DNA from: Okamejei kenojei
Lineage: Eukaryota
Assembly: GCA_035221665.1 (NCBI GenBank)
Contig: CM069134.1
Location: 25,730,001 to 25,794,000 of the forward strand
Direction: 5' to 3'
Length of the DNA stretch: 64,000 bases
Of this stretch, positions 8,988 through 32,188 are shown piece by piece. The notes under the pieces were generated by a model. That model worked only from the letters and a program-made list of their open reading frames with translations, had not been told where the DNA came from and made no database searches. The position numbers were made by a program, and so were the translations under genes. The first letter of the stretch is position 1, and each line of letters opens with the position of its first letter.

Positions 8988-8989
8988 GC

Positions 8990-9092
8990 GGAAGATAGAC
9001 CTAAAATGCTGGAGAAACTCTGCCGGACAGGCAGCATCTCTGGATAGAAGGAATGGGTGACGTTTCGGGTTGAGACCCTTCTTCAGACTGAA
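8990..9092 (-). mobile_element. Penelope-like terminal fragment, hammerhead core intact (9059-9086)
   Basis: Reverse complement reads CTGAAGAagggtctcaacccGAAACGTC. Confidence 0.75.
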
Positions 9093-9434
9093 GAACTTCC
9101 TACTCCATCTGGGCCTCCTTTGGCATCCTCATTTGGCATGGACAGCAGCCAAAGACCAAAGGTGGAGATGAGTGTGCAGGAGCTGGACAATAGCTCGAGA
9201 ACTATGTATACATGCTCCATAGAACACGATCTCACCCCGTGGATGATGCCTTAGCAATACTATTGGAAGCAATACTATTACAAATCCCCAGCAAAAGCAG
9301 CTTGTGCTATCTTGCACAATGGAGAACTGGCACCGGTGCTAACGTGGCTCCTGCCGTTACTGCAGGGCATTTTTGTCCTGTCTCTCTAAGTATTTTTTGG
9401 CAATGGCATAGAATCTTATGAGCTGTGACGTGTG

Positions 9435-10015
9435 TTGTTACAAAACATTGGATAGGCCACATCTGAAGTGTTGTACGCAGTTCTGATGGTCACACTATAC
9501 AAAGATGCAATTGTGGTGGAGACAATTAAGAGGATATTCACCAGGATGTTGTCTGGATCACAGCATTTTGTTTAGATAGGGAGATACAGCGCAGAAACAG
9601 GCCCTTCGCCCCACTGAGTCTGGGCCGATCAGCAATCCCTCTACATTAACACTATCCTACACACACTACGGACAATTTACAATTTTAGCAAGCCAATTAA
9701 CCTACAAGCCTATACATCTTTGGAGTGTAGGAGGAAACTGGAGCTCCCGGGGACAACACCCACAGTCATGATCGAACCCAGGTCTCTGGCTCTTTAAGGC
9801 AGCAAATTTGCCCCAGATTCTACATTCTCTAGGGTTAATTTAAAATGCTCATTTAACCTACCAACCCACTTGTCTTTGGGATGTGGGAGGAAAATCATGT
9901 AGCCACAGAAAAAAACATACCAACTCCATACAGAGCATCGGAGGTCAGGATTGAACTTGGGTCACTCGAAGATGTGAGGCAGCAGTTCAATTAGCTGCGC
10001 CAACATGTTGCCCCT
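9435..10015. mobile_element. Short CR1 fragment (+, ~9435-9565) followed by two partial HE1-type SINEs (-, ~9570-10015)
   Basis: CR1-like aaaacattggataggccacatctg...ttcaccaggatgttg; reverse SINE tail gatacagcgcagaaacaggcccttc and B-box remnant gatcgaaccc. Confidence 0.7.
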
Positions 10016-11189
10016 GTTACAATTTATTTTGTCCTTGAACAGACCTTCTGAAAAAACTCATGGATTTGTCAACTTTTGAAAAAGAAAACATTTTAGATAT
10101 TTCAGAGAGAAAACACCACTAGGGCCCATGTCCAAAGAATGATTTTTGAAATGAAAACTTTGGTTAAAGTTGTTTAGGATTGAAAACCTTTTATTAATTA
10201 TTTTCCTTTCCTTGTGTTCTAGTGCCGAGACAAATGTACTCGTACTTCTGCTCTGGCTGTGATCAGCTAAACCTTATGAAGTTAGTATATTTGTACTGTG
10301 GACCTTTTCCTGCTGTTCTGGCTGCAACGCCCCCTTCCTTTGTTTTCCTTAGCCTTACAAAGGGGTCCTCCTGTCGGTGTTCAATCAGATCTGACAAAGG
10401 CTTTCTGTCTGAAATGTCCAACCGCTTTTTCCTTTTCAAATGTTGACAGACCTCCTGTGTATTTTCAGCATTATTTGTTTATATTCGGAAGAAAAGGTAC
10501 AATTAGATTGCAATGAGAGGATTTCTGATTTTTTTTTTTAAACTGTTAAGCTGGAAGAGAATATCAACTGTGTAAAATAAAACCTTGGTTGAATGTTGGA
10601 GGTGCACCTTAACATAATAAGGTTATTACTTCATCTGGGATTGAGTCTTTAGCTTACAAGTGGCATTCCAACCTCTCAAATCGAGGGTAGAGAAATTGAA
10701 CTAGACTCCAGGTGGTTCTTGTGACTTGTGACTGGATCTCCAACTCTTAATTCTGACATTCAGCAAGCTATTGAGTATTGGTTGATGAGAGTCGTCGTTC
10801 CCCCCTCCCCTCCCCAATTGTGTTGGCTTCAAGAGCACCAAATGTTCTCATGTTGGATGGAACTAATAATCCACTCAACTGTTATTAAAGATTATTTGAA
10901 AGTCCATCCATTTTATTCCAAGGGAAGAGTGAAAAGATACAAAGAAGAATGCTCAATAATTACATGTCATGCCAGAAATAGTTTTAACTTAACATTTTCC
11001 AATGGAAAACGTAAATAGAGAGCAATTTTTTGTGTTGACACTGTTATCGCACTCACTTATTACAATGCAAGTCTATGCGAGCAGTGTTCAAATTGTGCAT
11101 TACCGGGGAAGTCATTTTATTTGAATTTATCTGGCAGCCTTGAGTCGCATCGATATGTTGAAAGGCTGAATGAAACTCCAATTTTCTAA

Positions 11190-11370
11190 AACATAGACAT
11201 AGACATAGAAATTAGGTGCAGGAGTAGGCCATTCAGCCCTTCGAGCCTGCACCGCCATTCAATATGATCATGGCTGATCATCCAACTCAGTATCCCGTAC
11301 CTGCCTTCTCTCCATACCCTCTGATCCCCTTAGCCACAAGGGCCACATCCAACTCACTCTTAAATATAGC
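11190..11370 (-). mobile_element. CR1 LINE 3' end
   Basis: ggtgcaggagtaggccattcagcccttcgagcc is the reverse complement of the CR1 tail seen at ~51080-51115. Confidence 0.75.
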
Positions 11371-12786
11371 AAATAAAAGTCATTGAGTTAGGTGAACTTG
11401 TGAACAGAGCCCACAATTAGCATTGATCCTATGCTTGGAAACAAATTCTTGATGGCAATGTTATTTTAACCTCAGACTTACCAACAGCAAGTTGACTTGG
11501 AGGTTTCATTGAGCTGTATTCTAAAGATTTTATTTTGCTTTTAAAACTTTTAACCTCAAGACCATCACCATCAAAGAAGCACGAAGGAGAGAGAATGGAA
11601 GGGATCAGGGCAGCCAAAGGATAATATTTCAGGGAGAACCTTATCACAAAGATCAATAGAATGAAAGCTCTTAAATTAACATAATTAATATTAGAAAAGA
11701 ACTTGGGGTTACAATGGACGTTGAATAAAGAGAAAAAATAATAATTTTGCTTGATCGCTCCATTCTAAGAGACCTATAAATCTGAACTTGCTCCAATCCA
11801 TCATTACTAATAAAGGAATTCTGGCTTCACTACATTTTTGTATCATGTTAGTGGCCTGTAACTAATTAATGACCCTGAAACCATAGATCTCTTCGCATTG
11901 GACATATTTTTATTACTGGTTTGGCAAATAGAACCAGGATAAATTATTATTTTTTCCCCCATATTTTTCATTTTCAAATAAAGCAGAAATACATAATGAA
12001 TGGATTATGTTGCTAATATAGATCAGTCTGAACTCTACTCTAGAGTTAAACATTCCTTACAGGATGATTTTGTATAAATTAAGGGTCAGATTTCAGTGCG
12101 AGGCACGGCATTTCACAGCACCCATTTGTCAATTTGATGGCACCTCCAAGAGGTTGCATTAGCTTTTCTTTGAAGATGAGGGAAATTTTATGCAAGTCAT
12201 TCACTGTCATTTAGACTTGGACCCCACTCTCTTTTGCCAAGGATCTTCTAATAATACCAGGTAATGTCATGATACAATAATTCACAGAAAGCATATGACA
12301 ACTGTTTAAGCAATTGCTCCTTACATAAAATTGTTCAACACACTGAAAATAAAGGAGATTAGCACAAATTAGTCTAGAATTTCTTTTGAGCTTTTACAGC
12401 GAACAAAGATCTAAAATAATCAAGTTTCCCCCTTTGCAAATATTGTCCACTCTAAGAAAAGACTTGGTTTCATGTTTCAAATAGTGATTTAATCAGGATA
12501 TTTTCAGCTATTTGATAAAAGGAACAAAGCTTGTGTAAATTAGTGATTTTAGTAGTTAAACCAGCAAAACAGCACACCAACTTGTGCTAATTTATTTGAT
12601 GCCTTGCATGTAATTGTGTTTCTGTTAAGAAAAGAGCTATTGGCAGAATTCAAAGGTTATTACAATGTAACGCTGAAATACTTAAAAATCTATCTTCTGA
12701 TTATTGATTAGTATTTTCCTGAATTTATATAGTTTGTTGTCTTTGTATCACTGTGAAACTAACTGCACGGATGTTAATCTAAAATA

Positions 12787-13315
12787 TAGATGGATAATGG
12801 CTAATTAGGGATAGTCAGCATGGTTATGTTCGTGGGAGGTCGTGTCTCACAAATCTGATTGAGTTTTTTGAAGATGTGACCATAAAGGTGTCGATGAGGG
12901 CAGAGCTGTAGATGTTGTGTACATGGACTTTAGTAAAGCATTCAACAAGGTTCCTCATGGTAGGCTGCTCTGGAAGGTTAGATCACATGGGATCCAAGGA
13001 GAGATAGTTGAATGGATAGCAAATTGGCCTCATGGAAGGAAGAAGAGGGTGATGGTGGAAGGTTGCTTCTCGGACTGCAGGCCTGTGACTAGTGATGTGC
13101 GTCAGGGATCGGTGCTGGGCCCGTTACTGTTTGTCATCTAAATCAATGATTAGGATGAAAACATCCACGGCAAGATTAGCAAGTTTGCAGATGATACAAA
13201 AGTGGGTGATTTTGCAAATAGTGAAGATGGTTGTGCAAAATTGCAGCAGGATCTTGATCAATTGGCCGTGGGTTGAGGAATGGTTGATGGAATTTAATGC
13301 AGTAAAATGTAAGAT
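12787..13315 (+). mobile_element. CR1 LINE reverse-transcriptase fragment
   Basis: YMDFSKAFNKVPHGRLL, QGSVLGPLLF, KFADDTK motifs; frameshifts and stops. Confidence 0.9.
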
Positions 13316-13424
13316 TTTAGCTTGAGTGCCTGACAGGATGTGTGGCCAAAAAGGCACACAAATCCATCTAGTTCCTCGGCAGATTAAGAAAGTCCAGCTC
13401 TTACCAAGTCCTATAGATCCACTT

Positions 13425-13930
13425 TAGAAAACATAATATCGGGTCACATCATAGCTTGGGAAAAATAACTTCATAGGGTTGCTGATGTCACCCAGTCCGT
13501 CACTCGGACCAGCCTACCCACCATCTACTTCATCCACACTTCACACTGCCGTGGGAAAGCAAGCAGCATAATTGAGGACATTTTTCACCCTGGTCATTTT
13601 CTCTTCTCCCCTCTCCCATCGGGCAGAAGATGCAAAAGCTTGAAAGCGCACACCACCGCATTCAAGATCAGCTTCTTCTCTGTTATCAGACTATAAAACG
13701 GTCCTCCCATAAACTAGGGTGCAGTGCCGATCTTTCAATCCACCACATTGTGAACAATTATTTGTTTCTCTCTGTGTGATGCTACAATGCTGTAAACTAT
13801 ATTCTGCACTCTTTGCACTATCTTGTACTAGCGTACAGCTTGATTTTACTCAAGCATAGTATGATTTGATTTGCCCAGATAGCGTGCAAACAAAAGCTTA
13901 ACAAAGTACCTCAATACAAGTGACGGTAAT
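13425..13930 (+). mobile_element. Rex1/Babar-like LINE 3' fragment
   Basis: ttctcccctctcccatcgggcagaag...aaagcgcacaccacc 3' region shared with the other Rex-like copies. Confidence 0.65.
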
Positions 13931-14419
13931 AAGCCAATATCAATATTTGTGGGAACATCACTCTTAATAATGTGAGTGTAAGACCTTTATTTCTCCAGAG
14001 ACAAATGTATAGTAGAAGCCAGAAAATAAAGTGATCATGTGCACAAAAAATAATTACAAGAGATTTACTATGAATGGAGCAATTGGGAACGGCTCTAAAA
14101 TTACAATGAAAGTTTTCATGGGGTAACAAGTGCGGAGAACAGAACATTATGATCAGTAGAATGAAGGTGGTTCTGGGATTGTAATAAAATTGTAATAAAG
14201 TGCATTTGCAACAACTTAAAATAATTAGGAAGCAAATGCATTTTTATTTTCTAAAGATGTGAAAGAAGGCTAGTGGATTTCCGTACAATGTACATCCTAA
14301 TATATTGCAAAACATTTTGAATTGTAAATATGATTTGCTTTTTCAAATAAAATATGAAGATGTGTTGCAATTGGTAATGTGTTATACTAAGGATTGAGTG
14401 CCAAATGATTTCTGAATTT

Positions 14420-14625
14420 ATAGAGACACAAGCAACTGCAGATGCTGGAATCTTGAGCAAAAAACAAAGTACTGGGGGAAGTCAGCTGGTCAGGCAGCAT
14501 CTGTGGAGGTGTGATGAGAGGTGATATTGTGGGACTTCAGTCTGAAGAAGTGTCCCAACGCAAAACGTCATCCATCCATTTCCTGTCACACCTGGTCTGC
14601 TAGGTTACGCCAGCACTTTTTTTCT
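14420..14625. mobile_element. PLE-derived fold-back (inverted terminal fragments), diverged
   Basis: aactgcagatgctgg...ggcagcatctgtggag arm, then cagtctgaagaag...aaaacgtc and a reversed arm. Confidence 0.6.
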
Positions 14626-15507
14626 GCTCTGAATTTGTGGTGTTTTAATATCACTATTGTATGTGGTATATATGTAATCTGCAGTGAGCTGAAGAGGGAC
14701 TGTAGTTTTTGTCATGGGAAGTATATCACAAGGAAATATCCAATTTTGGGGTTCAGCAGTAATATTGGATGTTTTCTTGCATGAATTCATAATTCAAATT
14801 GGAGATTTTAAATCCAAACATTTGAATGTTTAACAAAACTAATATAGAGAGCACTTGGGTAGTTAATTACTTAGATTTAGAGGGGGGGATAAAAGAGATC
14901 TATTTGTGCAGCTCAAGCAAAGCACAAATGGATCAAGTTAACATTTTGTATGATTGTTTGATGTATCAAGTTTCAGTTGTGGTGAGCTATCATTTGTATT
15001 TGAATTTATATGATTATATGGTGTTTGTCCATTGTGATTACCAGATGAAATCCTGCTGTTTAAAAAAGAAAATCTCTAAACTTTTTTTTGAACTGAAAAT
15101 TTTTTGTGAATTTTCCACATTTGCAACATCGTCTGAAGGTACTATTCTTTATTGTGGTCTGGTTCCATAGGTTTGTTTGTGAAGCTTTGCTGGTTTTCTA
15201 AGAAATACTGGGATCACAAGGAAGGATGAAACCGATCCATGTTCTGCAGATATTAACATTTTATCCATTTACTTTTAATAATGTCACAGATAATAGTGTA
15301 ACTTGTCAAATAGTACCTGCTGACTGATTTCAATAGGTATTCAATTGCTGACTGTTTAACTAAGTTGTACCATAACAAAATCACATCTTTGTTCATGCAC
15401 AGAAGCTATTAGTCAGATATGGAAAATAAGATGATGTGTCTGAAGATTTAGCAAGTAAACTTTGAGATAATTTGACTGCTGCACACTCTGATGATATGTA
15501 GATTTGG

Positions 15508-15600
15508 AAAGGTAGACAAAAATGCTGGAGAAACTCAGCGGGTGAGGTAGCAACTATGGAGCGAAGGAATAAGGCAATGTTTCAGGTTAAGACACTTCTG
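15508..15600 (-). mobile_element. PLE terminal fragment
   Basis: gtagacaaaaatgctggagaaactcagcgggtgagg shared arm. Confidence 0.65.
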
Positions 15601-16949
15601 CTTTTCCCAATCCCATCAGCAAGGTCCATGTAGAAAATGAGTGAACATTGAGTTAAAATAAGCTATTCATATGCAAAACTGAAGTAGTTACCTGAAGAAT
15701 GTCTTTGTTATTAGTTGTAGGAATAAATCTTCTGCTGCTTTATTCAAACTGGAAATAGTGAGTGCTGTTGTGTAAAAGTTAAAACAACGTGCAGAGGTAG
15801 GGTTATTGCCTAGAAATAGAGAAAAGTATTAAAGATGCAAAATCAGTGGTCACTGCACATCATTTTTAAAGTAAAAAAAACATGTAACTTTGTGTGTATT
15901 TGATCTTTTTGCCATTGAGGCATTATGGCAATCGTCAAATATTTTATAACAGGGTTCTGATGCAGTGAACTTTGCTCTAGATCCGACCTGAAACGCAACT
16001 GAAGATGGAAAAGAATTTGAACTTTAATAAGATTAATTCATTACGCTTTTGACGATCCCTGCCGGGTTTGGCTGTAGTACCATGAAATTTAACATAGTGT
16101 TTAGAAACTCACAAACCATAGTTAAGTTAGTCTATCAGAATTAAAATCAAACACTACCTACAGTAGTTGCATGTTATTTTGAAGTACTGAAGCAGTAACA
16201 AACTACAGTTACTCTCTCCAGTAATCCAAATCAGCTGCTCCAGGATTTAATACCAGACCACCTACCTTTTTTCTCTGATAAGAACTAATTGCCATCAACA
16301 TTTTGGTATGTGTGGATTTGCTGCAGTGATTCAGATCAATCTGGATTAGTTTATTTTCACTAGTGAGGACACAGTTTTGCTAGACTGATCAAGCTTAATT
16401 TGAAAGCATTCCTTCCTACGCTGACAGAATTAGATTACCCAGGTATACATTTGCTGTTGTAACTAAACTGATGAAGTTGCATGGAAAAAGTCATTTTTCT
16501 GCATACTGTCTGCATACTGTCAGAAATATGGTCAAAACATAGAAAGCAGACAACTTAAATTTTGTGCATTGGGAAGACAACAGTTTAAGTGCATTTAACT
16601 TTTATTCCTGTAACAGTTTGATGATCATGACTAATAGCTGTAATTCCAGCCAAAATATATACGTCCATTAGATTCATGAATTTGCACGTGCTAGAACTTA
16701 ATACTTCTAAAGTATTATGATGATTAAAGTAAAATGAAGAATTTGAATGACATAATGTGTACATGTTAGATTGCATCAGTTTGCTTGAGTGCCACATTTT
16801 GCCACGTATGACCAAACTATTGGAAGTTGTGAACAACTCTGTGTTTCTTTCTCAGTAACAGTTTATTATTTAAAATATTAACCTTCTGTGAACGTCACTG
16901 AAAAAATGTTCAGGATTCTTTCTCATTTGTCAAACTAGGAAAATTAAAT

Positions 16950-17141
16950 ATGTAGGAAGGAACTGTAGATGCCGGTTTAAACCAAAGATAGACACAAAAA
17001 GCTGGGGTAACTCAGTGGGTCAGACAGCATCTCTGAAGAAAAGGAATAGGTGACTTTTCGGGTCGAGACCCTTTGTCAGACTTTTCTACAGAGATGCTGT
17101 CAGACACTCTGAGTTACTCCAGCTTTTTGTGTCTATCTTCA
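16950..17141. mobile_element. PLE-derived fold-back
   Basis: Arm 16985-17035 is largely the reverse complement of 17089-17139. Confidence 0.75.
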
Positions 17142-17454
17142 GAAAATTAAATGCTTGGCTGCTGAGGTGGTGAGAATAGAGGGAATTTTGCTGTGGGGTA
17201 CTGACATCAGTTGTGGCATAAAAATAAGTTGTTTTCTTGGGAGGGACTCCACTTAACCCACTCCAGGACAAATCTCCTGGTGAAGCAAATAATTAGGTTC
17301 ATCAATAGAACTAATATTAATGAGGTAAAGTAGAAGATTTCAGAAAGGTTAAATGAAAACAAACATGAACAAATTACTTAAGGCAGCTGAACTGAGTGGG
17401 TGAAAATTTAAAAAAATACTGCAGATGCTGGATATCTGGCATAAAACTTAATAA

Positions 17455-17645
17455 ACAATAGACAATAGGTGCAGGAGTAGGCCATTCGGCCCTTCGAGCC
17501 AGCACCACCATTCAATGTGATCATGGCTGATCATGCACACTCAGTACCTCGTTCCCGCCTATGCTCCACATCCCTTGACTCCGCTATCTTTAAGAGCTCT
17601 ATCTAACTCTCTTGAGAGCAGCCTTCACCACCCTCTGAGGCAGAG
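17455..17645 (-). mobile_element. CR1 3' end inserted into an older PLE-like fold-back (~17415-17790)
   Basis: CR1 tail motif flanked by actgcagatgctgg and gcagcatctgtgga...ttccacaactactgcctga. Confidence 0.6.
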
Positions 17646-18054
17646 AAGACTTCCAGAAATATGCTTGATGGACTCAGCATCTCAAGCAGCATCTGTGGAA
17701 AGATAAAGAAAATTAATGTTTTTGACCTGAAATGTTAAATCTGTTTCTCTTTCCACAACTACTGCCTGATCTACTGAGTGTTTCCAATATTTGCACTTGC
17801 TTAGGACCAAGTGGGCAATTTGGCTAAAAGTAGGTAGAATGTGTCAAGAGGGCGAGAGAGCTTAACAGTACTCACCAAAGAATCAACATTAAAAAGTTTA
17901 AAGCTAAAGGTACCACGTAATAATGTGTTCTCAGCAAAATAGATGATTTGAAAAGTCAAACAGGAATAAATGTGTTAATTTAGTCGATATTTAGGAAAAG
18001 TGTCTACTATGTGGTGGATATGGATGATAACATTGTAATTTGATGATTGATTGT

Positions 18055-18360
18055 GAGAGGTATAGAAGTGTGAAAACGCACACCTCCAGATTCAGGAACA
18101 GTTCCTTCCCAGCTGTTATCAGGCAACTGAACCATCCTACCACAAGTAGGGAGCAGTCCTGAACTACTATCTCGGTCCCTCAGACTGTCTTTGATCGGAC
18201 TTTGCTGGCTTTACCTTGCACTAAACCTTATTTCCCTTATGTATCTGTACATTGTAAATGGCTCGATTGTAACCATGTATTGTCTGTCTGCTGATTGGTT
18301 AGCACGCAACAAAAGCTTTTCACTGTACCTCGGTACACATGACAATAAACTACACTGAAC
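18055..18360 (+). mobile_element. Rex1/Babar-like LINE 3' UTR
   Basis: Reverse complement of ~7335-7640; ends ttcactgtacctcggtacacatgacaataaac. Confidence 0.75.
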
Positions 18361-18579
18361 AGAATGACCATGTTGATAAATTCAGCAAACTCTATAAACA
18401 AGTATTGCTACAAGCTCATCACTGTGGAATGCAAGAAGCATGTCAGGTTCACAGTTTTTCACCCAACAGTAACTGTGGTGTTCATTGGATGCTGACCTCA
18501 GCAGTGGTCATTTGTGTTTGTGATTTGAGTCACTTAAAGCTGGTTTACCCTACTTATGACCACCTCGTCCTCTTAAAGT

Positions 18580-18842
18580 CGAATAGCTTTAAAGTGAGAG
18601 GGGCAAAGTTTAAAAATGTTCAGGGCAGGTTTTTTTTTTTACACAGAGAGTGGTGAGTGCCTGGAACATGCTGCTGGGTGTGGTGGTTGAAGCAGGTACG
18701 TTAATGCCATTTAAAATAATTTTGGATAGGCATATGGATATGGAGGGAAATGGGCTATGTGCGGGTACATAAGTTATGGTTGGCATCATGTTCGGCATAG
18801 ACATAGGGCCTGATCTTGGGTTGTACTGTTCTATGTTGTATG
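18580..18842 (+). mobile_element. CR1 3' fragment
   Basis: tttaaagtgagaggggcaaagtttaaa...acacagagagtggtg...cctggaac (FKVRG / FTQRVV-like). Confidence 0.7.
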
Positions 18843-19457
18843 AATATGGATTTACTGCCATATGTTATCTGTCTGATGCTGATGTGGAAAACAGTAAAAC
18901 TAGCACTCACAGTGGAGACTGGACTTTGTTTATTTCATGCAATGCATAGGACGCTTCCGTCCAGGAGATGAAGAGATCAGGGTGTGATCTACCAGTGGGA
19001 ATAAGGGAGTCCTGCAGAAAAGATCTGGTAAGATAATGCCAGATGATAGCTGTGATAGTCAATAGGAGAAGTCAATCCTTAAAGATCTCAATGCAAGACC
19101 ACCAGATATTCAATGGGCCCACAATGTCGGTGAATGCACCTTCAGTGGCCACCACCAACTTCAGATGCTGCTTCATTCACCACTTCCTCTTATCTCATCT
19201 TCCACTATCTGTGGCAATCAATGCATAAAATTCACTGTATCTTCACACATTTGGCAATATGCAAGCTTCATACATAAATGCTGCAGCTTGCATGCATTTC
19301 CAGCCATTTAACCCTGAGAGACTCATTACGTAAAGGTTCTGTGCGATGCCCACTGATGCACTAATCCCTGCCCTTTCTGGACAAGATGGTGCATTGATAG
19401 AGACAGTAGCAATGTTGGAGAAAAGTAAAGCTTCATGGCAGCTACACAGATGAGACG

Positions 19458-20150
19458 GTATTGGTATTGGTTTATAATTGTCACATGTACTGAGATACTG
19501 TGAAAAGCTTTGTTTGCATGCTTTCCTGTCAAATCTAAGCAGGCCATACACGTTCATAAGTGATAGGAGCAGAATTAGGCCACGGCCCATCATGTCTACT
19601 CCACCATTAAATCATGGCTGATCTATCTTTCCCTCTTAACCCCATTCTCCTGTCTTCTCCCCATAATCCCCGACACCCATACTAATCAAGAATCTATCTA
19701 TCTCTGCCTTTAAAATATCCATCAACGTCCTCCACAGCCTTCTGCGATAATGAATTCCACATATTCACCACCCTCTGGCTAAAGAAATTCCTCCTCATCT
19801 CCTTCCTTTGGTAACATCCTTTTATTCTGAGGCTATGACCTCTGGTCCTACTTCCCCACTGGTAGAAACATCCTCTCCACATCCACTCTATCCAGGGAGA
19901 CCTAGGTAGCTGAAAGAGAAAAATAATTCCAGAATATAGCGCTTTAGTGTTACAATTACAGAGAAAGTACATGCAATGAAACAATGAAACAGGTTGAGAG
20001 ATCGGGACTATATTCTTGCTTTAGGAGAGGTCTGCTCAATTACCTGATAACAGCAGGGGAAAAAAATTTGAATGTGGTAGCATATGCTTTCAAGCCATTG
20101 TATCTTCTACCTGATGGGAGAGGGGATAAGAGGGTATGATCAGGGTACAA
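19458..20150 (-). mobile_element. Rex-like 3' fragment interrupted by a CR1 3' fragment (~19555-19896)
   Basis: Rex tail at ~19470-19530 resumes after ~19950; the insert encodes CR1 C-terminus SRTRGHSLRIKG...RRNFFSQRVVNMWNSL. Confidence 0.7.
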
Positions 20151-20413
20151 TTGGAGTGGGCAGTGCTTAGGCTCCAGAAGATGAAAAACAGTAAAAGATC
20201 TTTAACTCAATCTTCCATCTCACAGCCCATTTCTCCCCATTCTCGTCTGTCATCACACGATGTATTATCAAACTGATGTGGTGTTAGCGTACACATCTAT
20301 GCTGGTTATCTCACGCAGCCCTACACATGTTCCTTCGCCTATCTGAGAGACAAGATGTGCAACCTGCTCAAGGAGTGGCAGAGGATGAATAGGTTGCAGA
20401 TCGCAGTAATGTA

Positions 20414-20705
20414 ATGTGTAGGAACGAACTGCAGATGGTCCTGATTAAATTTCACTCGTTTAATTTCATTTCATTAAAATACCTCATTGTGACCTTCCCT
20501 TCAGCTAACAATGATCCATTTGACATTTCTTTCATCATCGTCCCCTTAGATCTTTCTTTTTCACACCCTACCCTTCCATATCTCTATGTCTCCCTCTCCC
20601 CTGGCTCTCAGTCTGAAGAAGGGTCTCGACCCGAAACGTCACCTATTACTTCTCTCCAGAAATTCTGCCTGTCCCGCTGTGATACTCCAGCATTATGTGT
20701 CTCAA
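20414..20705 (+). mobile_element. PLE terminal region with intact hammerhead core (20613-20640)
   Basis: ctctcagtCTGAAGAaGGGTctcgACCCGAAACGTCacc; a short inverted arm gtaggaacgaactgcagatg lies at the 5' side. Confidence 0.8.
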
Positions 20706-21559
20706 TTTGCAGTAATTATATTGATGAACAGATAATTTACTGAATACTAGATCTGATACATAACTTAAGGTTGAGTTTGGAGGTGGTATCTGCACATGTT
20801 ACAATGCTGTACACACGTGATCTGCCTCCAGCCAGCCTTGGGGAAAGAGGGCAAGTGGCACCTCAAAAGGTGAGATCACAAATGGGTTCTGCTGTAGAGG
20901 GCTCAGGTGACGACTTGAATGGGGGCAGGTCAAGAAGAATGCTGATGGGTCAGATCAATGAAAGATTTCAATGCATTGCCAGGCTTGTCAGAACTCCTGT
21001 AAACAAAGTTAAGGAGCAGAGAGGAACACGTCGCCAACCTTGCACATGGCATTGCATACACCTTGGACTCTACCCTTGGCAGTGTGAAGAGTAATGCATG
21101 AATGTGTTGAGGGATAAAACCATGCTGCTGTTTCCATTGCAGTACAAGCAGCTCAAACCTCCAGCATGCAAGCCCAGACTACCTGATATCACAGCATGGG
21201 ATAGCAAGAGCGCGTGAGCACAACCTGTCCTCCCAGAAGAATCCTGGGACTATTGAGGTGCTGACCTCGGGTTGTGGCAGAATCTGCTGTGCTCCCTCAA
21301 GCTGATAAGCACTCATTGTGCCAGCACTCATTGTGCTTTTTGCCCGCCAGCCAAACAGCTGCTTATTTTGGTCCAGATTTTACTTTTGGTTTGTAATCCA
21401 CTGGATAATGTGAGAGTCGACAGCAGACGGAAGGTAAGTTGTGGAACAATTGATGGTATTGTATTTATGGCATTGCAATGGGCGACAGTAACAGAAAAAG
21501 GCTGTGTTAGTTCACCCATCCCTTCCTGCTCCTGTTCTGCAGCTAGCGTCTGTGGTGGC

Positions 21560-21870
21560 AAGGGCTGTGAACTTACAGAAGACCTGCATAATTCTTGACA
21601 CTAGCTGGGATGCATACTGTAGGCTCCTCATGGTAACACCATTGTCTCAATGTGAGGGTTGACTGCTCTCTGTATTCTGTGCGGTGTTATGTCTCTGTGT
21701 GTACAGATTGTGCAGCAAAGTCATGGACTGTGTAATTAGCAGGTATCCTAAAAATTAAATAACTACCTTTTGGTTTACCTTGGTACTCAAGTGCTGAGAG
21801 CACAGCAGACTGCCACAAAATGAAGGCATTAAGGATGTGTTGACTTGCATGATCCACACTAGCTGGATGT
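21560..21870 (-). pseudogene. Highly decayed PIF/Harbinger (HARBI1-like) DDE nuclease remnant
   Basis: Manual minus-strand translation gives IMQVN, AFILWQSAVLSAL and GSLQYASQLVSRIMQVFC, resembling recalled Harbinger motifs HDAFILRQS and GALQYSPERVSRIV. Confidence 0.45.
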
Positions 21871-22349
21871 CAAGAGAGTGAGATGTTTTGGCTTGTGGTG
21901 CATATTGGAGTTGAGATGAGCCTTCCAGCCCCACTAAGCAATATGTTTGCTTTGCTTGCTGCCCTCTGATAAGAGAGATTATAAATCTATTCAGATATCA
22001 TTGAATAGTATCAGTAAGCTCCTTTACCCAAAAGAGGGCAGTCGGCTGCCAAATGGTGCAAATATCTATAACTCTGACCTAAATTAAAGCTTGCACCTTA
22101 ATGAATTATTTGACAATCACATTTCATGCCCTACCTGCCCTGTTCTGGGCTAGTAGCAGCTGCTGCAAATAGTGCCATATTTTTTCACGAGATCATCCTA
22201 ACTCAAACAGCTTTCAGACTATCACTGAGGTGCAAGTAGAACTGTTCCTGCCACCCCAGTTACAAATGATTTACTCAGACTATGCTGACAGCACCTTCCA
22301 AACCTACAATCACTACTACCAAGAAGGACAAAGGCAATAAGTCAAGTAA

Positions 22350-23060
22350 GGGCAAGACCTTCACAGTGAATGCTAAGGGCCTGGGAAGTTGTATTACAGT
22401 TGTGCAAGACTTTAGTGAGGCCACATGTAGAGTATTGTGTTAGATTTTGGTCATCCTGCTGTAGGAAGTATGTCATTAAGCTTGGAAGAATGCAGAGTAG
22501 ATTTAAGAGCATGTTGCCTGGACTCAAGGGCCTGAGCTATCGAGGAAGGTTGGGCAGGCTAGGCCAATTCCTTGGGGCACAGGAAGCTGAGGAATAATCT
22601 TATGGAACTGTATAAAATCATGTGGGGATAGATAGGGTGAATGCACGGAAACCTTTACCCAGAGGAATTAAGAACTAGAGCACATGGGTCTTCTAGTTCT
22701 AGGTTGGGATACAAAGCCTGTTCCCATGCTCTAGACTTTAGTCTTTGAGACTTTAGAGATACAGTGTAGAAACAGGCCTTTCGGTCCATCGCAATCTCAT
22801 CAACCAGTGGTCACCCCGCACACTTAACACTATCCTACACACTAAGGACAATTTACAATTTTACCAAAGCCAATTAACCCATAGACCTGTACGTCTTTGG
22901 AGTGTGGGAGGAAACCGAAGCATTCGGAGACAACCCACGCGGTCACAGGGAAATTGTACAAACTCCATACAGACAGCTTCCGTCGACAGGATCAAACCTG
23001 GGTCTCTGGCGCTGTTAGGCAGCAGCTCTACACCATGCGGCGGCCTGCCACCATGCCACG
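22350..23060. mobile_element. CR1 RT/3' fragment (+, ~22350-22730) and HE1-type SINE (-, ~22745-23060)
   Basis: LQLCKTLVRPHVEYCVRFWS CR1 motif; reverse HE1 body gtacgtctttggagtgtgggaggaaaccg. Confidence 0.8.
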
Positions 23061-23363
23061 CCCATGCTGTATGACTCTGACTCGAAGTGCATGGAAACAT
23101 ATGCTGTTAGTTCCTTTCATGTGAAACATCTTCCTGACTTGGAGATATATTTTGCGTTTCTTTCATCTTTACTCGGTCTGAATCCTGGAGCTCCTTTCTC
23201 TGGCTGCATTGTCAGAGCACCTTCAACAGATGGACCGCAATGGTTCAAGTAGGAGTTCGTCACTTCCTTTTCAAGGGCAGTAGGTATGCGCAAGAAATGC
23301 AGACCTTTACAGCAATGCCCAGATCCCCAAAAAATAGAATAAATAAACAAAAAGCTGTAGGAG

Positions 23364-23479
23364 CAAAATGGAAAGGCCATGCAGAGTTGGTGTTTGAAGT
23401 ATCGGGCGATTTATTAAGATTGGGGCACACCAGGAAGTCTTTACTTCGAACACCAACTCTGCAAGGCTTTTCCATTTTG
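23364..23479. repeat. 38-bp inverted repeat with 40-nt spacer
   Basis: 23364-23401 matches the reverse complement of 23442-23479 at 35 of 38 positions. Confidence 0.9.
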
Positions 23480-24419
23480 GTCGAACAAAACTATATAATG
23501 ATGGGTCTTGGGCTGGCCACACACAAGATTAACTATTGTTGTTTGTAACAAATATAACTGCAATACAAGAGTAAAGTACAATGAAGAATGCATGAAAAGT
23601 TGCATGAAAAATTGTAGATAATGCTTTCTTGAATTATTTCTTGAAATAATATTCTCTTATTCCCAAAGCATTTTAATATTTCAAAGATCAGGATGTTCTT
23701 TTTCAATGATGTCTGGACTGATCTCAAGCTTTCTCTGACTTTGATGTAACATAAAACTTTACATAAGCCTTTTATTTGAAAGGGGCTATTTTCATGTACA
23801 ATATCTAAATTATACTGATATTTGCACCTGCGCCCATTCGCATTCAATGCTTTTTAAGTAATTTGAACTGCTTTTGTTTTAAATTTGGGAAAAATCTTAT
23901 ATTCAGTCTCATGAAATAATCTTCAGCGCACTTAACATTCCTATGTTATAGCCCCAGCAATTACCATGTCCCGTTCAGACTTATTTTAGCTTGACATTAT
24001 TGATCCTGACTGCCTTCATTCATTTGTGCGTGGGATGTTGTTGTGGTGGCTTCATTTAATAAGAAATGTTAAGCTGTGCTATGCCTGCTGCAGGGCACAC
24101 CTATAATAAGCTCATAATCTTTGGCTTTAAAAATTCCAGCAATGTGAGCAATCTTTCCATGTTTGATAGCTTGGCCCAAGACGATTTTTAAATTACTGTA
24201 CAATTTGGTGTATTTATCAATCTCTTTGAATTTAAAACAAAAATTAGGGCTAAATGTTTATGAATTTATATGAATTATATGACAGTAAATCTTTCCAATA
24301 TGTGGGTTGTGATATAAGCTGTGATCATGTTCCACCTCTTTGTTACTTTGCCTTCTGGACACCCTGCCAACAGTTATCACACAACCCTATCTCCCACTGT
24401 GGGACTGACGTTTATATCC

Positions 24420-24516
24420 AGGATAGACAAAAGTGCTGGAGAAACTCAGTGGGTGAGGCAGCATCTATGGTGCGAAGGAAATAGGCAACGTTTCGGGCCG
24501 AAACGCTTCTTCAGAT
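24420..24516 (-). mobile_element. PLE terminal fragment with hammerhead-like core
   Basis: Reverse complement CTGAAGAagcgtttcggcccGAAACGTT; stem II is weakened. Confidence 0.65.
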
Positions 24517-24560
24517 CGGACAACATGTTTTCCCATACAAGAATGCTTTATTGTCATATG

Positions 24561-26910
24561 AACCTTCTTAACATAGAGAGCAAGATCTTTTTCAGTGTGG
24601 TGGCAAAAAGACTTACAAAGTATCTGAAACAAAACCATTTCATTGATACGTCAATCCAAAAGGCTTCTCGGGATGCCTTGAACATACCAGCATCATATGG
24701 CATCAAACCCAGACTGCTAAGAAAGAACGAAATAATCTGCATGTCTTGTTCCTCGATCTGGCCAACGCCTATGGATCAGTTCCTCATTCGCTACTGTGGA
24801 CTGCTTTTGAATTCTTTCAGGTGCTGGCAATAATAACAAATCTGGTAAAAAACTACTTCCAGGATCTGCAATTTTGTCTCACAACATCAGACTTTACCAC
24901 AGCATGGCAACCACTGGAAGTCGGCATCATGGCGGGGTGCACCATCTCCCCATTGACCTTCACTATGTCAATGGAGCTCATTATCAAAGCATCAAAATGG
25001 GTTGTGGGAGGAAAGCGGTTACAGTGTGGTCAGCGATTGTCACCGGTACAAGCCTATATGGACGATATAACAACACTAACAACAACTATCCCCTGCACCA
25101 AGAGATTTCTGGAAAAAGGTCATCAAAACATCACATGGGCAAGGATGAAGATTAAACCCAGCAAGTGCAGAAGTAACTCCATTGTCAAAGGTGAAGTCAA
25201 GGATCAAAGATTTCATATTAACGGAATACCTGTTCCAACTGTTTCAGAAATGCCAGTGGAGAGGTTGGGCCGATGGTATGATGCAAAGCTCAAGGACACC
25301 GAGCAGTTTGAACAACTGAAAAAGGATACCATCATGCACATAGCTCGCATCAACAAGACCTTGCTACCAGGAAAACTCAAGCTGTGGTGCTTCCAATTTG
25401 GCATACTACCAAGAATCATGTGGCCTTTAACTATGTATGAAATCCCCATCAACAAAGTGGAGAAGCTGGAAAGAATGATCAGCACACATGTGAAACAGTG
25501 GCTTGGATTTCCACGATGCTTAAGTGCTGTATGAAAGTGGCAAATTGGAATTACCCATTACAGGGCTTGTGGAAGAGTTCAAATGCACTAAAGCAAGGTT
25601 GGTCAGACCCTCACTGAATCTGAAAATATTGTTATTCAAACAGCGGCTCCCCGTGTGGCAACGGGGAGGAAGTGGACCCCATCAGAGTGCTAAGACTGCT
25701 CTTCATTTCCGGAATATGGTTGGCCAAGTCCAACACGGGAGAGCTGGGCTCGGGCTCGTCCCAAAAGCTCCTCAATGGCACAAGGCAACATCAGTGCAGA
25801 AAAGACGGCTCGTGGTGGAGGAGGTGAGAAGACGGGAGGAGGCAGAGCGACACGCCAAGGCTGTCTCAATGGCCAAGCAAGGCCAATGGGCTAACTAGGA
25901 GAGCCTGGAAAAGAGGAAACTCAGCTGGCGTGAAATCTGGCAAATGGAAGGATCTCGGCTAAGTTTTGTCATCAGAGCCACTTATGATATTCTACCATCA
26001 ACGCAGAACCTGAAGCAGTGGTTCGGAGAAGACCCAACTTGCTCCCTTTGCCAAATGCCTGGATCACTAAGGCACATTTTAACAGGATGCACTATGAGCC
26101 TCGGCCAAGGGCGTTACACTTGGCGGCATAACCAAGTTCTCAGACAGCTGTCATCAATCCTTGAACAGAGGCGAACGATCACAAATGCTTCCCCACCAAC
26201 ATCGGCAGGAAATGTCCACTTCACAACGTTTGTACCAGCAGGCCAACCTCCAGAGCACCAAATAACATCAATGGATGCAAGCATTCTGCAGCCTGCTCGG
26301 GATTGGAAAATGGAAGTGGACTTAGAAAAAAGGCTTGTGTTTGTGGTTACAACACTCCGGCCAGACATGGTCCTGTGGTCCACAACAGCCACATTGGCAT
26401 ATGTTGTGGAATTGACAGTTCCATGGGAAGATGGTGTTGAAGAAGCTTATGAGAGGAAAAAGACCAAGTACTGGCAACTGAAGCCCAGAATGGCTGGAAG
26501 ACCACGATTTTCCCTGTCGAAGTGGGATGCAGGGGATTTGTTGCTACATCTATGACCAGGCTATTAAAGAAAATGGGGGTGAGGGGTCGCTCCCTCCAAC
26601 AAGCAATCAAATCATTATCAAATTCTGCAGAAAAAAGCAGCAATTGGATTTGGATCAAAAGGAGTGACAACAATTGGGCTGCAAATTGAATACAGGAGGG
26701 TATGGAAATGAAGGGGGTGTTACTGGGACACCAGGTATCACCGTTGAGCCCTCTGGAGATGTTGTGAGCTTATCAATGAAACGTCAAATAAGGAGGATGC
26801 CCACCTGATGACCCGATGACGTACCTACCCTACCTTTCACCACTCCAATCCCACTGCAAATAGCAAGAGTGCCGACCTATTACAGGGATTGAAACATCAA
26901 GTCCTATTAG
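24561..26910 (+). mobile_element. HERO-type (R2-group, restriction-like endonuclease) non-LTR retrotransposon, 5'-truncated and frameshifted
   Basis: RT motifs FLDLANAYGSVPH, GIMAGCTISPL, AYMDD; CCHC knuckle CSLC...LRHILTGC; RHNQVL; RLE motifs RPDMVLWS...VELTVPWED...KKTKY; ~220-nt 3' UTR. Confidence 0.85.
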
Positions 26911-27777
26911 CTCTACTGTACCGAAACAGAGCAATGACATTTTTACTGGGAGCAGCACAACAGATGTGCAACCATGTGCAACTTGCAACTATTTGCACAG
27001 AGAAGTTTGCAAAGAAAAGCATGTCTAATGTTTTTAATGTTAGCTTTTTTTCACCCGCAATATATCACAATTACACAATTATGTGAGGGTGGAAGGGAAA
27101 TAACTTATGCACCAGTGTAGCTTATATACCAGATACCCCCCATCCTTTTTTTCCAGAGATGCGGCCTGACCCGCTGAGTGACTCCAGCACTTTGTGTCTA
27201 TTTTTGGTATAAACCACCATCTGCAATTCTTTCCTTCTCCATTTTTTACATACCAGATTGTATGATGCCCATTTACCTATAAAGAACAAACAGCACCAAG
27301 TCCGACAGCATCCTATCTATATACACTGTAAATGGCTCGATTGTAATCATGTATTGCCTTTCCACTGACTGACAAAAGCTTTTCACTGTACCTTGGTACA
27401 CCTGACAATAAACTAAACTGAACTGAAGTCTGTATCCTTAATGCTTTTCTCCTGCTTGTGATTATGTGCTATTTTAATTTTAACTCCCCTCAAATTATCG
27501 TTGGAAATCCTGTAAATGTATAAACTAAATAATTGGCAGGCTAGTGGAAGTTTATGTTTCTCAGCATTGTTTCAAAACATTGCTATGAGTTTTGGTTCCC
27601 AATTCCTTCCAAGTTTATATCAGGGGATAGAATTTATTTCAAATATAAACCTAATGTTACATAAAATATGTTATAAAATGCCACCAGGAAGCAAATGACG
27701 TAAAATAAACACAAAATAATTATTGTACATTTATGTACTTTCTACTTTACTTCTCATCCAACTGCTTATGGTTTCTA

Positions 27778-27985
27778 AGGTAGACAAAATTGCTGGAGAA
27801 ACTCAGAGGGTGCAGCAGCATCTATGGAGGGAAGGAAATAGGCTATGTTTCGGGCCAAAACCCTTCTTCAGACTGATGCAGGGTGGGGGGGGCGGGAAGA
27901 AGAAAGGAAGAGGAGGAGCCAGAGGGCTGAGGGAGAGCCGAGAAGGGCAGGAGACAGCAAGGGCTACCAGAAATTGGAGAATTCA
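27778..27985 (-). mobile_element. PLE 3' end (last GIY-YIG codons, purine-rich spacer, degenerate hammerhead)
   Basis: Closely similar to the copy at ~60985-61200; agaaattggagaattca encodes EFSNF on the minus strand. Confidence 0.75.
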
Positions 27986-28769
27986 CTGCTTATGGTTTCT
28001 TTTGTCTACATATTGATACCCAGCCTTGATGATGCTGGTCCTGTTTGTCTGACCCTTTCATTTACAATTAACATTTATTTTCACGAACTCCTTCACTAAA
28101 TCACAGCTCGATTTTCTTTCCAGCTATTTCCCATTTGCGCACAGCTAGTAAATCATTCTTGCAAATTGAGAGCAATATCAAGTATTTACCAACTGATCTG
28201 AATCATCGTGGTATTGGCCAATCCTTATCAAATCATTTATCCAAATATAAGTTATTACTGTTCAAGAGTTAGAAAATGAATTGTCTGCAGTTGAGGGGAA
28301 CTAAACATAGCACAAACCGACCAAAAGCTACTCCATAATTTTTCTTATAGCGTGGATCACTTGACAATGCTGAGTTTAGCACAAAATCAGAATCTGGCAA
28401 AATTAAAAGGGCATCTTATAGAGTGATTATTAAGTTGAGGTCAGAGAGAAAAATGTATGGGAGTTTGAGCAGGAATATCATTTACCTTTTAGATTCATAA
28501 ATAACAAGGTTAACAGTTTCTCAATTAAGAAATGGTGGTAACCTGAGGTAGAAGAGGGCTCTGGGTCAAATGTACATTGTGGTTGATTATGCTGATTCTC
28601 GTTCAAATCTTGGTGATCTGAAATGGTAGACTTTATTAACTTGCAATAGCAGATCAGAAATAATTTTCCTTTAAAAGGCTGTATGTATGTATTCTTGCAA
28701 AGAGGGAATTGATAACTGCAAGTCCTCTTCCTCCCAGTTTGTCAGGGAGATCCTGCAATGTACTTTGTG

Positions 28770-28915
28770 CCGAAGATAAACACAACAGGCTGGAGTAACT
28801 CAGCAGGACAGGCAACATCTCTGGAGAGAAGAAATGGGTGGCGTTTTAGGTCGAGACCCTTCTTCAGAGTCTGAAGCATTTTATGTCTATCTTCAGTGTA
28901 AACCAGCATCCTTCC
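28770..28915. mobile_element. PLE-derived fold-back
   Basis: ccgaagataaacac...gctggagtaactcagc arm and reverse gcattttatgtctatcttcagtgtaaaccagcatc. Confidence 0.65.
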
Positions 28916-28954
28916 CACACTGTACTTCATGCCACTTGCTGCTCATCGGCATAT

Positions 28955-29745
28955 ATCCAGTTGAGTTTTTGTTTTTCGGAGCTCTAGTCTTTTTTATGTG
29001 GGGGGTGGGGGGGGGGGGAAGGGGGAACCTACTTTTCAGGGTCCCTACCTGGCCGGAGAGGCAGCTTTTCTCCAGGCTGCACCTTCGACCCGTCCTCGCG
29101 GCCTACCAGCGGGCCTGGAGCGGCGTTTCCTGAGGGGACCGCCCAGAACCTCGGCTTCGGCGGCGGCGCAGCACTGGGGCGCTAACACGGAGCGGAGCGG
29201 GTGATGCCTTGCCTGGGTCGCCGCGCTGGAGCTCCGGAATGCTGAGCCCGCAGGTGAACATCGCGGAGCTACGGGACTGTGGAGCGGCCAGCCGCGGGCG
29301 GCGGCGCTGAACTTTGGCATCGGGAGCCTCGGATCTCTTGGCGAGATCGCCAGTGGTGGAGCTCCATCCGGCGTGGCCTGTCGGCTTCGGAAGCCGCGGT
29401 CTCGAGTAAGGAAGCGGCTGCTCCAGGTGTCCCAAGCCGCTGTGAGGATTCTCCCGACGCCGGAGCACCACCATCGGAGAACGGCCTGTAACATCGGGCT
29501 GCCGTAGCGGCGACTGCGAAAGGCCTCAATAGGCCCGACTATGGGTGGACAAGGGGATGGGGACTGGACTTTGTGCCTTCCCTCACAGTGGGAACCATTG
29601 TGGGGGAATGTTTTTATGTTTATTGTTAAATTCTTTAGTATTGTGTCTTATCTTTATTTGTGTGCTGCATGGCAAGTCAAATTTCACTACACCAATTGGT
29701 GTATGTGACAATAAATGTCCTTGTCCTTTGTCCTTTGTCCTTTGA
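28955..29745 (+). mobile_element. GC/CpG-rich non-autonomous retroposon-like repeat with Rex-like tail
   Basis: Abrupt CpG-rich block ending aatttcactacaccaattggtgtatgtgacaataaa plus (tgtcctt)n; overlapping ORFs have no recognisable motifs. Confidence 0.55.
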
Positions 29746-30319
29746 ACGGAAACCTCTGGAGACTTTGCGCCCCACCCAAGGTTTCCGTGCGGTTCCCGGA
29801 GGTTTATGTCAGTCTTATGCTCCCTGTCCCGCTGAGTTACTCCAGCTTTTTGTGTCTACCTTCATCATAAATGATAGGACCTGTCTTTGCTTATCAAGGT
29901 TTGTCGCCTTAAGATGTTTAGGACTTATTTTCACTCTTAGCCACAGTTATAAAACATAGAACAGGACTACACAAGGACAAACAGTGATGCCTGTGCCGAA
30001 CATGATGCCAAATTGAACTAATCCTATCTGCCTGCACATAGTCAATATCCCTCCATTCCCTGTCGCTTCATCTGCATGTCTAAATGCCTCTTCAGCATTG
30101 CTATCATACCAGCTTCCAGTCTAAATGTCTTTTAAACTATTATATCTGTTTCCACTTTGTGTCATAAATCTCCTTGAAACTTTCTCTCTCACCTTAAATA
30201 AATGCCTTCTGGTATTTGACATTTCCACCCTGATGAAAAATACATGATTTGCCACCCAATCAGGATCATGTTTATTGGTCACTCTGTGAGCTTCTTGTGA
30301 AGAAGGAATTTGATTACAC

Positions 30320-30518
30320 CCTTGAGGGGAGAACTGATAGAAGTATATAAAATTGTGAGAGGCATAGACAGAGTAGACCTTCACAACTTTTTTTCCAGGG
30401 TGGAAATGTCAAAGACTAGAGGCCATAGCTTTAAGTTAAGAGGAACAACACTTAAAAGAGATGTGCAGGGCAGGTGTTTTGTCCAGAGAGTGGTGGGTGC
30501 CAGGAACGCGCTGCCAGT
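30320..30518 (+). mobile_element. CR1 C-terminal fragment
   Basis: LRGELIEVYKIVRGIDRVD...SKTRGHSFKLRG...QRVVGARNALP. Confidence 0.85.
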
Positions 30519-32065
30519 TACCCCTCTGATTCTTATTAAATATTTTCCCCTTCACCTTGAACCTATGTCCTCTGGTCCTCGATTCACCTACTCTGGAATA
30601 GACTCTGTGCATTTACCCGATATATTCCTCTCATGATTTTGTACACCTTTATAAGATCACCCCTCATCCTCTGCGCACCATGCAATAGAGACCCAGCCTA
30701 CTCAACCTCTCCCTATTGCTCACACCCTCTAGTCCTGGCAACATCCTTGTAAATCTTTTCTGCACCCATTCAAGCTTGACAATATCTTTCCTATAACTCG
30801 GTGCCCAGAACTGAACACAATATCCTAAATGCGGTTTCATCAACGTCTTATACAACTGCAACATGACCTCACAACTTCTATACTCAATATTCTGACTGAT
30901 GAAGGCCAAAGTGCCAAAAGCCTTCTTGACCACCTCATCCACCTGTGACTCGACCTTCAAGGAACCATTCACCTGTCCTCCTACATGTCTCTGCTCTACA
31001 ACACCACCCAAAGGCCTACTATTTATTGTGTAGGTCCAGCCCTTGTCCGACGTCCCAAAGTACAACACCTCACACTTCTCTGTATTAAATTCCATCGACC
31101 ATTCATCAGCCCACGTGGCCAATCGATCCAGATCCTGCTGCAATCTTTCACAACTATCTTCACTGTCTGCAAAACCACTCACTTTTGTAACATCAGCAAA
31201 CCCTGCATTTTCTCATCTAAATCATTGATGTAGATGACAAACAGTAACGGACCCAGCACCGAACCCTGAGGTTATAACCATTCAGCTATATTTCCTTTGA
31301 TCCCATGCGATCTAACCTTCCAGAGCAGCCTACCATGCAGAACCTTATCGAATGCCTTACTGAAATCCATATATACAACATCTGCAGCTCTGCCCTCATC
31401 AACCATTTTGGTCACGTCTTCAAAAAAATCAATCAGATTTGTGAGACGTGACCTCTCACGTACAAAACCATGCTGACTATCCCTAATCAGCCCTTGCCCA
31501 TCCAAATGCCTGTATAACTTATCCCTCAGAATACTTTCTAGTAACTTTCCAGCTACAGACGTTAAGCTCACCGGCCATAGTTCCCAGCATTTTTCCTGCA
31601 GCCCTTCTTGAAAAGAGGCACAACATTTGCCACCCTCCAGTCTTCCGGTACCTCTCCTGTATTTAAAGATGACTCGTAAATTTCAACCAGGGCTCCCGCA
31701 ATGTCCTCGGATATATCTGATCAGGCCCTGGAGATTTGTCTACCTTCACACAAGACAGCACCTTCAGTACTTCTTCGACGGTAACACTGACTGCTCTCAA
31801 GAAACTTCCATTTACTGCCCCATGTTCCTCCGTCCTACTGTCTTTCTCCTCGGTAAATACAGAGGAGAAATACTCATTGAGGGACCTCGCCCATCTCCTG
31901 TGGCTCCACACAGAGGTGACCGCTTTGATTCCTGAGAGGTCCCACTCCCTCTCTAGTTACTCTTTTCCCCCTTATGTATTTATAATATATGTTTGGATCG
32001 CCCGTAATGCTACCTGCCAGAGCTGTGTCTTGGCCCCTTGGTGCCCTTCTGATCTCCTTTTTCAG
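30519..32065 (-). mobile_element. CR1 LINE ORF2 fragment (linker plus RT), with deletions
   Basis: LNEYFSSVFT, DKSPGPD, SLTSVAGKLLE, YMDFSKAFDKV, LYKTLMKPHLGYCVQFWAP. Confidence 0.92.
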
Positions 32066-32071
32066 TTTAGT

Positions 32072-32188
32072 CCTGGTCACAATGAGAACGTACGAACTCC
32101 GTACAGACAGTGCCCGCAGTCAGGATCAAACCTGGGTGTCTGGCGCAGTAGGGCACCAACTCTACCGCTGCGCCACCGTGCCGCCCCA
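32072..32188 (-). mobile_element. HE1-type SINE 5' part
   Basis: Reverse ggggcggcacggtggcgcagcggtagagttg tRNA-like head. Confidence 0.75.

Follow-up and report, generated by a model that had tools for sequence, protein, structure and literature searches.

What becomes of a gene when a potentially self-cleaving RNA motif comes to lie, in sense orientation, within one of its introns? The question is raised by a stretch of 64,000 nucleotides of the skate Okamejei kenojei (the window), in which a first-pass annotation had recognized a family of hammerhead-like repeats, one of them in the STAU2 gene. The analysis presented here indicates that this copy, at position 20613, is very probably a minimal hammerhead that rides as a passenger on a 5'-truncated terminal fragment of a Penelope-like element (PLE) of skates, and that it is likely inert in the STAU2 intron. 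The features on which the argument is built are collected in Table 1.

Table 1 Features of the window relevant to the hammerhead motif in STAU2
Feature	Coordinates	Strand	Evidence or remark
STAU2 exon, Staufen C-terminal domain, upstream intron border	1168..1281	+	Pfam PF16482, E 4.8e-11
STAU2 intron, GT..AG, phase 0, 57,153 nt; 26 repeat copies	1282..58434	+	
STAU2 exon past the intron	58435..58523	+	same translation as STAU2 of Leucoraja and Amblyraja
Tail copy, C15.2.A16.2 mismatch, 1-bp stem I; broken	6696..6787	+	
Tail copy antisense to STAU2; motif intact, 2-bp stem I, C3 at 9086	8997..9091	-	
5'-truncated pseudo-LTR/tail fragment of Penelope-like element, 263 nt	20439..20701	+	alignment to 56.6-57.5 kb copy
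Putative acceptor-like stretch, 22/26 pyrimidines then CAG	20583..20611	+	ends in stem I 5' arm
Minimal type I hammerhead motif	20611..20642	+	pattern and descriptor match
Tail copy, intact core (C3 at 37078), stem I absent	36989..37112	-	
Tail copy, tandem, 230 nt behind the 56.7 kb motif; core broken at C3 and G12	56398..56487	-	
Longest fragment: broken C-terminal coding part, cysteine linker, GIY-YIG, spacer, motif, tail	56633..57540	-	
Second-subfamily copy: GIY-YIG end, spacer, motif	60950..61308	-	

The hammerhead motif

Positions 20613-20640 (+) read CUGAAGA-A-GGGU(CUCG)ACCC-GAAA-C-GUC, a complete minimal hammerhead motif and letter for letter the core that had been proposed; the flanking window letters are ctcagt (from 20607) and acctat (to 20646). 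CUGAAGA (20613-20619) and an extra A are followed by a stem II of 4 bp (GGGU/ACCC) with a CUCG loop, GAAA, the C15.2-G16.2 pair and the GUC triplet, and cleavage is predicted after 20640. The ACGU at 20636-20639 is palindromic, and there is no monomeric helix III. Stem I is indeed as short as had been noted: it consists of two pairs, U-A and G-C, formed by 20611-20612 and 20641-20642.

The loose pattern CTGANGA..GAAAC occurs eight times in the window versus a mean of 1.32 in shuffled sequences, none of 100 shuffles reaching eight. A strict descriptor, requiring the core, a stem II of at least 3 bp, a Watson-Crick 15.2-16.2 pair and UH, gave four matches versus a mean of 0.015 and a maximum of 1 in 200 first-order Markov controls. 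These are 20613 (+), 9086 (-), 37078 (-) and 61080 (-), with stems I of 2, 2, 0 and 3 bp, respectively. The core at 9086 is exact, as had been reported, and the copy at 61080 does carry the GUU triplet that had made it near-intact, with a stem II of 3 bp. The core at 37078 is exact as well, but this copy, which lacks stem I, had been overrated. At 6697 (+), the AUC triplet is present; this copy is nevertheless not near-intact because 15.2 and 16.2 form a C.A mismatch and stem I is reduced to 1 bp. Some ten further copies had been described as decayed; decayed they are, but they number 16 beyond the five named, among 21 copies with both core and tail.

A search with the Rfam hammerhead families, the covariance-model check suggested earlier, returned no match at E<=10, either in the whole window or in 20560-20720 (161 nt). 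Short minimal motifs may fall outside the reach of these models.

The repeat family and its source element

With an nhmmer profile made from 15 copies, 31 copies were retrieved from the 64-kb window at E<=0.05, 15 on the plus and 16 on the minus strand, while the reversed window, used as a control, gave a single match (E=8). Core and tail are both spanned by 21 of the 31. The copies share a 3' end about 60 nt past the motif, in some of them extended by an extra tail of about 35 nt, while their 5' starts differ, and head-to-head inverted copies occur at five places. The fragment at 20439-20701 aligns locally to the sequence past the GIY-YIG stop of the 56.6-57.5 kb copy (83% over 213 nt in blastn). 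A search for target-site duplications at this fragment gave none of more than 6 nt. A tandem array of the motif-bearing unit was not found in the window, in which the closest same-strand pairs lie 230 and 410 nt apart and have broken cores.

A second subfamily is formed by the copies at 61080, 27871 and 24514, in which the U-A of the main family in stems I and II has given way to U.G; two of these copies also carry U in place of C17. The A>G changes, at 1.1 and in stem II, preserve pairing as U.G; these substitutions are compatible with a hammerhead fold, but they are one-sided.

The two copies with coding sequence were said to have the motif directly 3' of a GIY-YIG coding end. Both coding ends are there, but the adjacency is not: from the stop at 56946-48 a spacer of 228 nt leads to a motif with a 3-nt core deletion, and from the stop at 61182-84 one of 101 nt leads to the motif with C3 at 61080. 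In a full HMMER search, the GIY-YIG piece has 348 relatives at E<=0.001. Seven of these were looked up, and the four with names are all skate or ray proteins; of ten examined in Pfam, five combine RVT_1 with a C-terminal GIY-YIG domain, three have GIY-YIG alone and two have neither. The top match of an Atlas search was a GIY-YIG cluster (0.94), and the frameshifted piece used as query found nothing by word-index protein search or in PDB.

In the window copy, the nuclease is preceded by a cysteine linker, YNRRRCNTC, of which the first C is changed (tblastn); its relatives have CX4CX2C. A CX2-5CxxC linker between reverse transcriptase (RT) and endonuclease (EN) is given for Neptune, and Nematis is also described as having a linker motif (PMC8557442). 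Because of the linker before GIY-YIG, the source is likely a skate or ray PLE of Neptune type, an assignment that rests on motifs in fragments without RT, which cannot be placed on a tree; Nematis is a possible clade beside it. Poseidon, the initial guess, was dropped once the linker had been seen. Like EN+ PLEs of the Neptune type, the skate element has a C-terminal GIY-YIG domain after a cysteine linker, 5' truncation and inverted copies, and 5' truncation, inverted neighbours and a tail of 30-40 bp are typical of PLEs (PMC8557442). It differs in that the window holds fragments only, with the first linker C changed: neither an RT piece of the hammerhead-bearing element nor an intact coding copy was found in it. 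Both the anatomy of the motif and its position in the pLTR agree with the earlier designation as a minimal type I hammerhead on PLE termini.

A third GIY-YIG fragment of the element, at 47036-47332 (-), stops at the C-terminus of the nuclease with no pLTR or motif behind it, and a further piece lies at about 51334-51503 (+). The model of the skate neuromedin-U receptor 1 (P0016) ends in the GIY-YIG C-terminus of the element, by exonisation or through a gene-model error. The tail copy at 24425-24515 adjoins a long, lightly broken non-LTR retrotransposon coding region (24318-26555, +) with a Pfam RVT_1 match in 24647-25531 (E 9.7e-17). Elsewhere in the window, a Tc1/Sleeping Beauty-like transposase frame of 249 aa occupies 37480-38229 (+; Pfam HTH_Tnp_Tc3_2, E 2.5e-22, and HTH_SB). 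Fragments resembling reverse transcriptase at 30664-31682 (-), 49831-50247 (+) and 19694-20020 (-) are presumably akin to CR1-type LINEs.

The STAU2 intron

The STAU2 exons were located by an exon-scoring script; the 38-aa exon, used as a query against the Atlas, returned nothing usable. Exon 1168-1281 is 93-97% identical to shark and ray STAU2, and 18 of 19 shark and ray STAU2 entries join it directly to exon 58435-58523, the remaining one having an unrelated insert. As the flanking exons are those of STAU2 on the plus strand, the motif lies in sense orientation inside the intron, and the earlier placement of a sense-strand copy within a STAU2 intron holds. Reading past the donor (1282-1311, +), nine open codons are followed by a stop, so that retention of the intron might yield a short alternative C-terminus. 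The 1281 junction is a point of divergence in several STAU2 entries from animals other than sharks.

Immediately 5' of the motif, the pyrimidine tract and its CAG end place an acceptor-like site within stem I. Such a tract (20-23 pyrimidines of 26) precedes the motif in all seven copies examined and ends in CAG in five of them. The frame after 20611 is in phase with the STAU2 donor and open to the stop at 20741-43. It is absent from all 58 STAU2 proteins retrieved, and exonisation of the motif into STAU2 was rejected for this reason. In principle, splicing at the acceptor-like site could supply a better 5' arm for stem I. Neither any of the 31 GT sites of the longest copy nor the STAU2 donor would extend stem I past 2 bp, and such a splicing switch was set aside, although the test with GT sites is weak because the longest copy is decayed.

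Positions 1100-21000 were also compared with three sequencing runs, which are contigs of one study, of guessed RNA status, and cannot show RNA ends. The joint 1281 to 20612 is not among the 15 joints listed, and with 1847 others unlisted this carries no weight either way. For 18500-22500, no RNA run was listed as a match. Two runs include contigs of 230 nt whose match is confined to the STAU2 exon (1166-1282) and which continue in other letters on both sides, like a spliced transcript. One contig in each of the three runs leads from 4393 back to 4296, possibly as a head-to-tail repeat. This joint could reflect a motif-bearing, retrozyme-like unit of about 98 nt elsewhere in the organism, a weak lead from contigs that were placed at 90% likeness and in which the letters between the two points are unknown.

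Decay of the copies

Of the copies in the intron, 12 are sense and 14 antisense, without preference for either strand (p=0.85). Conservation was assessed in the 13 main-family copies among the 21 with core and tail, the eight copies of other subfamilies being excluded and columns 5' of truncations being skipped. Mismatches amount to 9/152 in the core versus 80/777 in the tail over all sites (p=0.10), and to 6/139 versus 74/751 at non-CpG sites (p=0.036), where the core is the more conserved. The latter contrast leans against an inert passenger. Tail columns with four to seven changes look like differences between source elements, not like decay, and after removal of these subfamily-variable columns the figures are 6/139 and 44/686 (p=0.44). 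The excess of core conservation that had been put forward as a check is seen in one of three comparisons, and conservation of the core is not clearly above that of the tail.

The 20613 copy itself has no changes in the 28 positions of the motif and 7 in 60 positions of its tail, for which a naive P of 0.03 is uncorrected for its choice as the best of 13. Intact motifs are found in 2 of the 13 main-family copies, where a rough model of neutral decay predicts 0.8-1.6. The other check suggested earlier, covariation in a family consensus, was run for helices I and II on 15 ungapped copies: the observed score was equalled or exceeded in 65 of 500 shuffles and there is one two-sided change, so that the score is not above shuffles. 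G10.1-C11.1 is kept in 14 of 15 aligned copies. With only 13 to 15 copies, the power of the conservation and covariation tests is low.

Predicted folding

In a folding model, the 40-nt motif alone forms stem II with a probability of about 0.7 and stem I with one of 0.03. In contexts of 160 and 210 nt, the values fall to 0.04 for stem II, because GAAGAAGGGU pairs with the downstream tail, and to about 0 for stem I. The first-pass annotation had proposed that the pre-mRNA could be cut if two copies pair. A double hammerhead, held together by ACGU/ACGU and two 2-bp stems, is predicted at -6.1 kcal/mol and is thereby less stable than two free monomers (-11.0, i.e., 2 x -5.5) or a non-catalytic duplex (-21.1), which forms through the near-palindromic stem II; these models omit tertiary contacts and proteins. 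In addition, the strict descriptor finds no second intact sense copy in the window to serve as partner. Of the other sense cores, the closest on either side of 20613 (6.1 kb upstream, 14 kb downstream) are broken. Both the folding energies and the lack of a partner thus count against the proposal.

Comparison with known hammerheads

Minimal hammerheads have been described in the pLTRs of PLEs and as scattered single copies (Cervera and De la Pena 2014, PMC4209133). The consensus given there comprises CUGANGAH, G10.1-C11.1, GAAAN, a palindromic 15.2-16.2 and NUH. The skate motif shares CUGANGA with an extra base, G10.1-C11.1, GAAA, the palindromic 15.2-16.2, the lack of a loop III and NUH, as well as the position 3' of a GIY-YIG end and the occurrence mostly as single, scattered, truncated copies. 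In the experiments reported in that paper, a monomer did not cleave and dimers and trimers showed low cleavage. Helix I ranges from 2 to 6 bp in its alignment of 56 motifs, the five 2-bp cases all having G-C pairs. The skate stem I, with its U-A pair and a predicted pairing probability of at most 0.03, is within this range but at its weak end, below the published 2-bp cases. This alignment lists no shark, skate or chimaera, and no paper on PLE hammerheads of cartilaginous fish was found in the literature searched.

Penelope of D. virilis also has a 2-bp helix I, and an intron ends at its 5' arm, where the skate motif has an acceptor-like site only; it differs by the presence of a helix III, albeit a short one, and by its two G-C pairs (PMC4209133). 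The PAc element of Anolis carolinensis resembles that of the skate in the hammerhead of its pLTR, which is followed by a defined tail end, but it is a member of the Penelope/Poseidon clade with a start codon that overlaps its ribozyme, whereas the skate CUGAAGA has no ATG there (PMC11167929). According to the same report, the PAc ribozyme cleaves only with the protein of the element, insertion in vitro does not require it, and RNA-seq showed no ends at the ribozyme site. Tandem non-LTR retrozymes have been reported in one chondrichthyan genome (bioRxiv 10.64898/2026.07.22.740005). They are likewise derived from PLEs, hammerhead-bearing and non-coding, but are defined there by tandem units that each have a complete ribozyme, an arrangement that the window lacks.

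Fate of the copy in STAU2

The passive carriage that is favoured here may be pictured as follows. The reverse transcriptase of the source element would start near the tail and usually stop early, and short motif-bearing tail pieces would therefore be dispersed in both orientations. In that element itself, the motif would act as a dimer in the processing of tandem precursor RNA, probably with assistance from the element's protein as in Anolis. Inserted copies would decay neutrally, that at 20613 being among the few still unmutated by chance. In the STAU2 transcript, misfolding is predicted for the motif, and no partner lies nearby; the motif would therefore be removed with the intron uncut, or be cut too rarely to matter. 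Nothing suggests a role of the motif for its host.

An occasional cut of the nascent STAU2 intron, made by pairing in trans with the aid of the protein of an active element and with little effect on the mRNA, is considered unlikely. All core letters are present at 20613, and the Anolis PLE hammerhead is assisted by a protein (PMC11167929). Bins bearing the repeat have summed depths of 1e4-1e5 versus 0-11 in several others in the contigs of the three runs, and partner RNAs may be plentiful if these runs, whose status is guessed, are RNA. On the other hand, pairing between copies would comprise 4+2+2 bp and is predicted to be unfavourable, the U-A and G-C pairs of stem I are weaker than the all-G-C published cases (PMC4209133), and none of the coding copies seen in the window is intact. 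Moreover, earlier work cited in PMC2995048 is reported to have found that a hammerhead cutting within an intron does not stop splicing, in contrast to a faster ribozyme.

A wider reading is very unlikely: that skates carry a very abundant, sub-minimal hammerhead, kept off by its 2-bp stem I and switched on only by the protein of the element, by a partner RNA in trans or by splicing at the acceptor-like site within stem I, so that intronic sense copies are conditional cleavage sites. If it were true, such copies, that at 20613 in STAU2 included, could shift isoforms when the element is active.

Still less credence is given to domestication of the 20613 copy as a regulator of STAU2, either by a cut in the intron leading to short isoforms or by a cryptic acceptor leading to an in-frame alternative last exon. 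Its sense orientation and unmutated motif would fit such a role, as would the tract and CAG at 20583-20611 in the phase of the STAU2 donor and the divergence that annotated STAU2 proteins of other vertebrates often show at the 1281 junction. Against it stand the absence of the frame from the 58 proteins and the direct exon joint in 18 of 19 shark and ray entries. The tract, moreover, is a feature of the family, neither strand is favoured, and ordinary decay is seen in the tail of the 20613 copy.

That the hammerhead resemblance arose by chance in an unrelated short repeat is already largely refuted and has next to no probability left: the missing Rfam match and a covariation no higher than in shuffles would agree with it, but descriptor matches far above controls, a pLTR position past GIY-YIG that is the usual place of PLE hammerheads (PMC4209133) and subfamily changes that still pair as U.G speak against it.

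Implications

In conclusion, the skate family joins the known class of minimal hammerheads of PLEs, which in itself says nothing about STAU2. It touches on the question of whether the minimal hammerheads of PLEs cleave in vivo at all, and a family so rich in copies, with a stem I of unusual weakness, lends itself fairly well to testing it. Were the sense copies in introns to cleave, the repeats would give rise to conditional breaks in pre-mRNAs throughout the genome.
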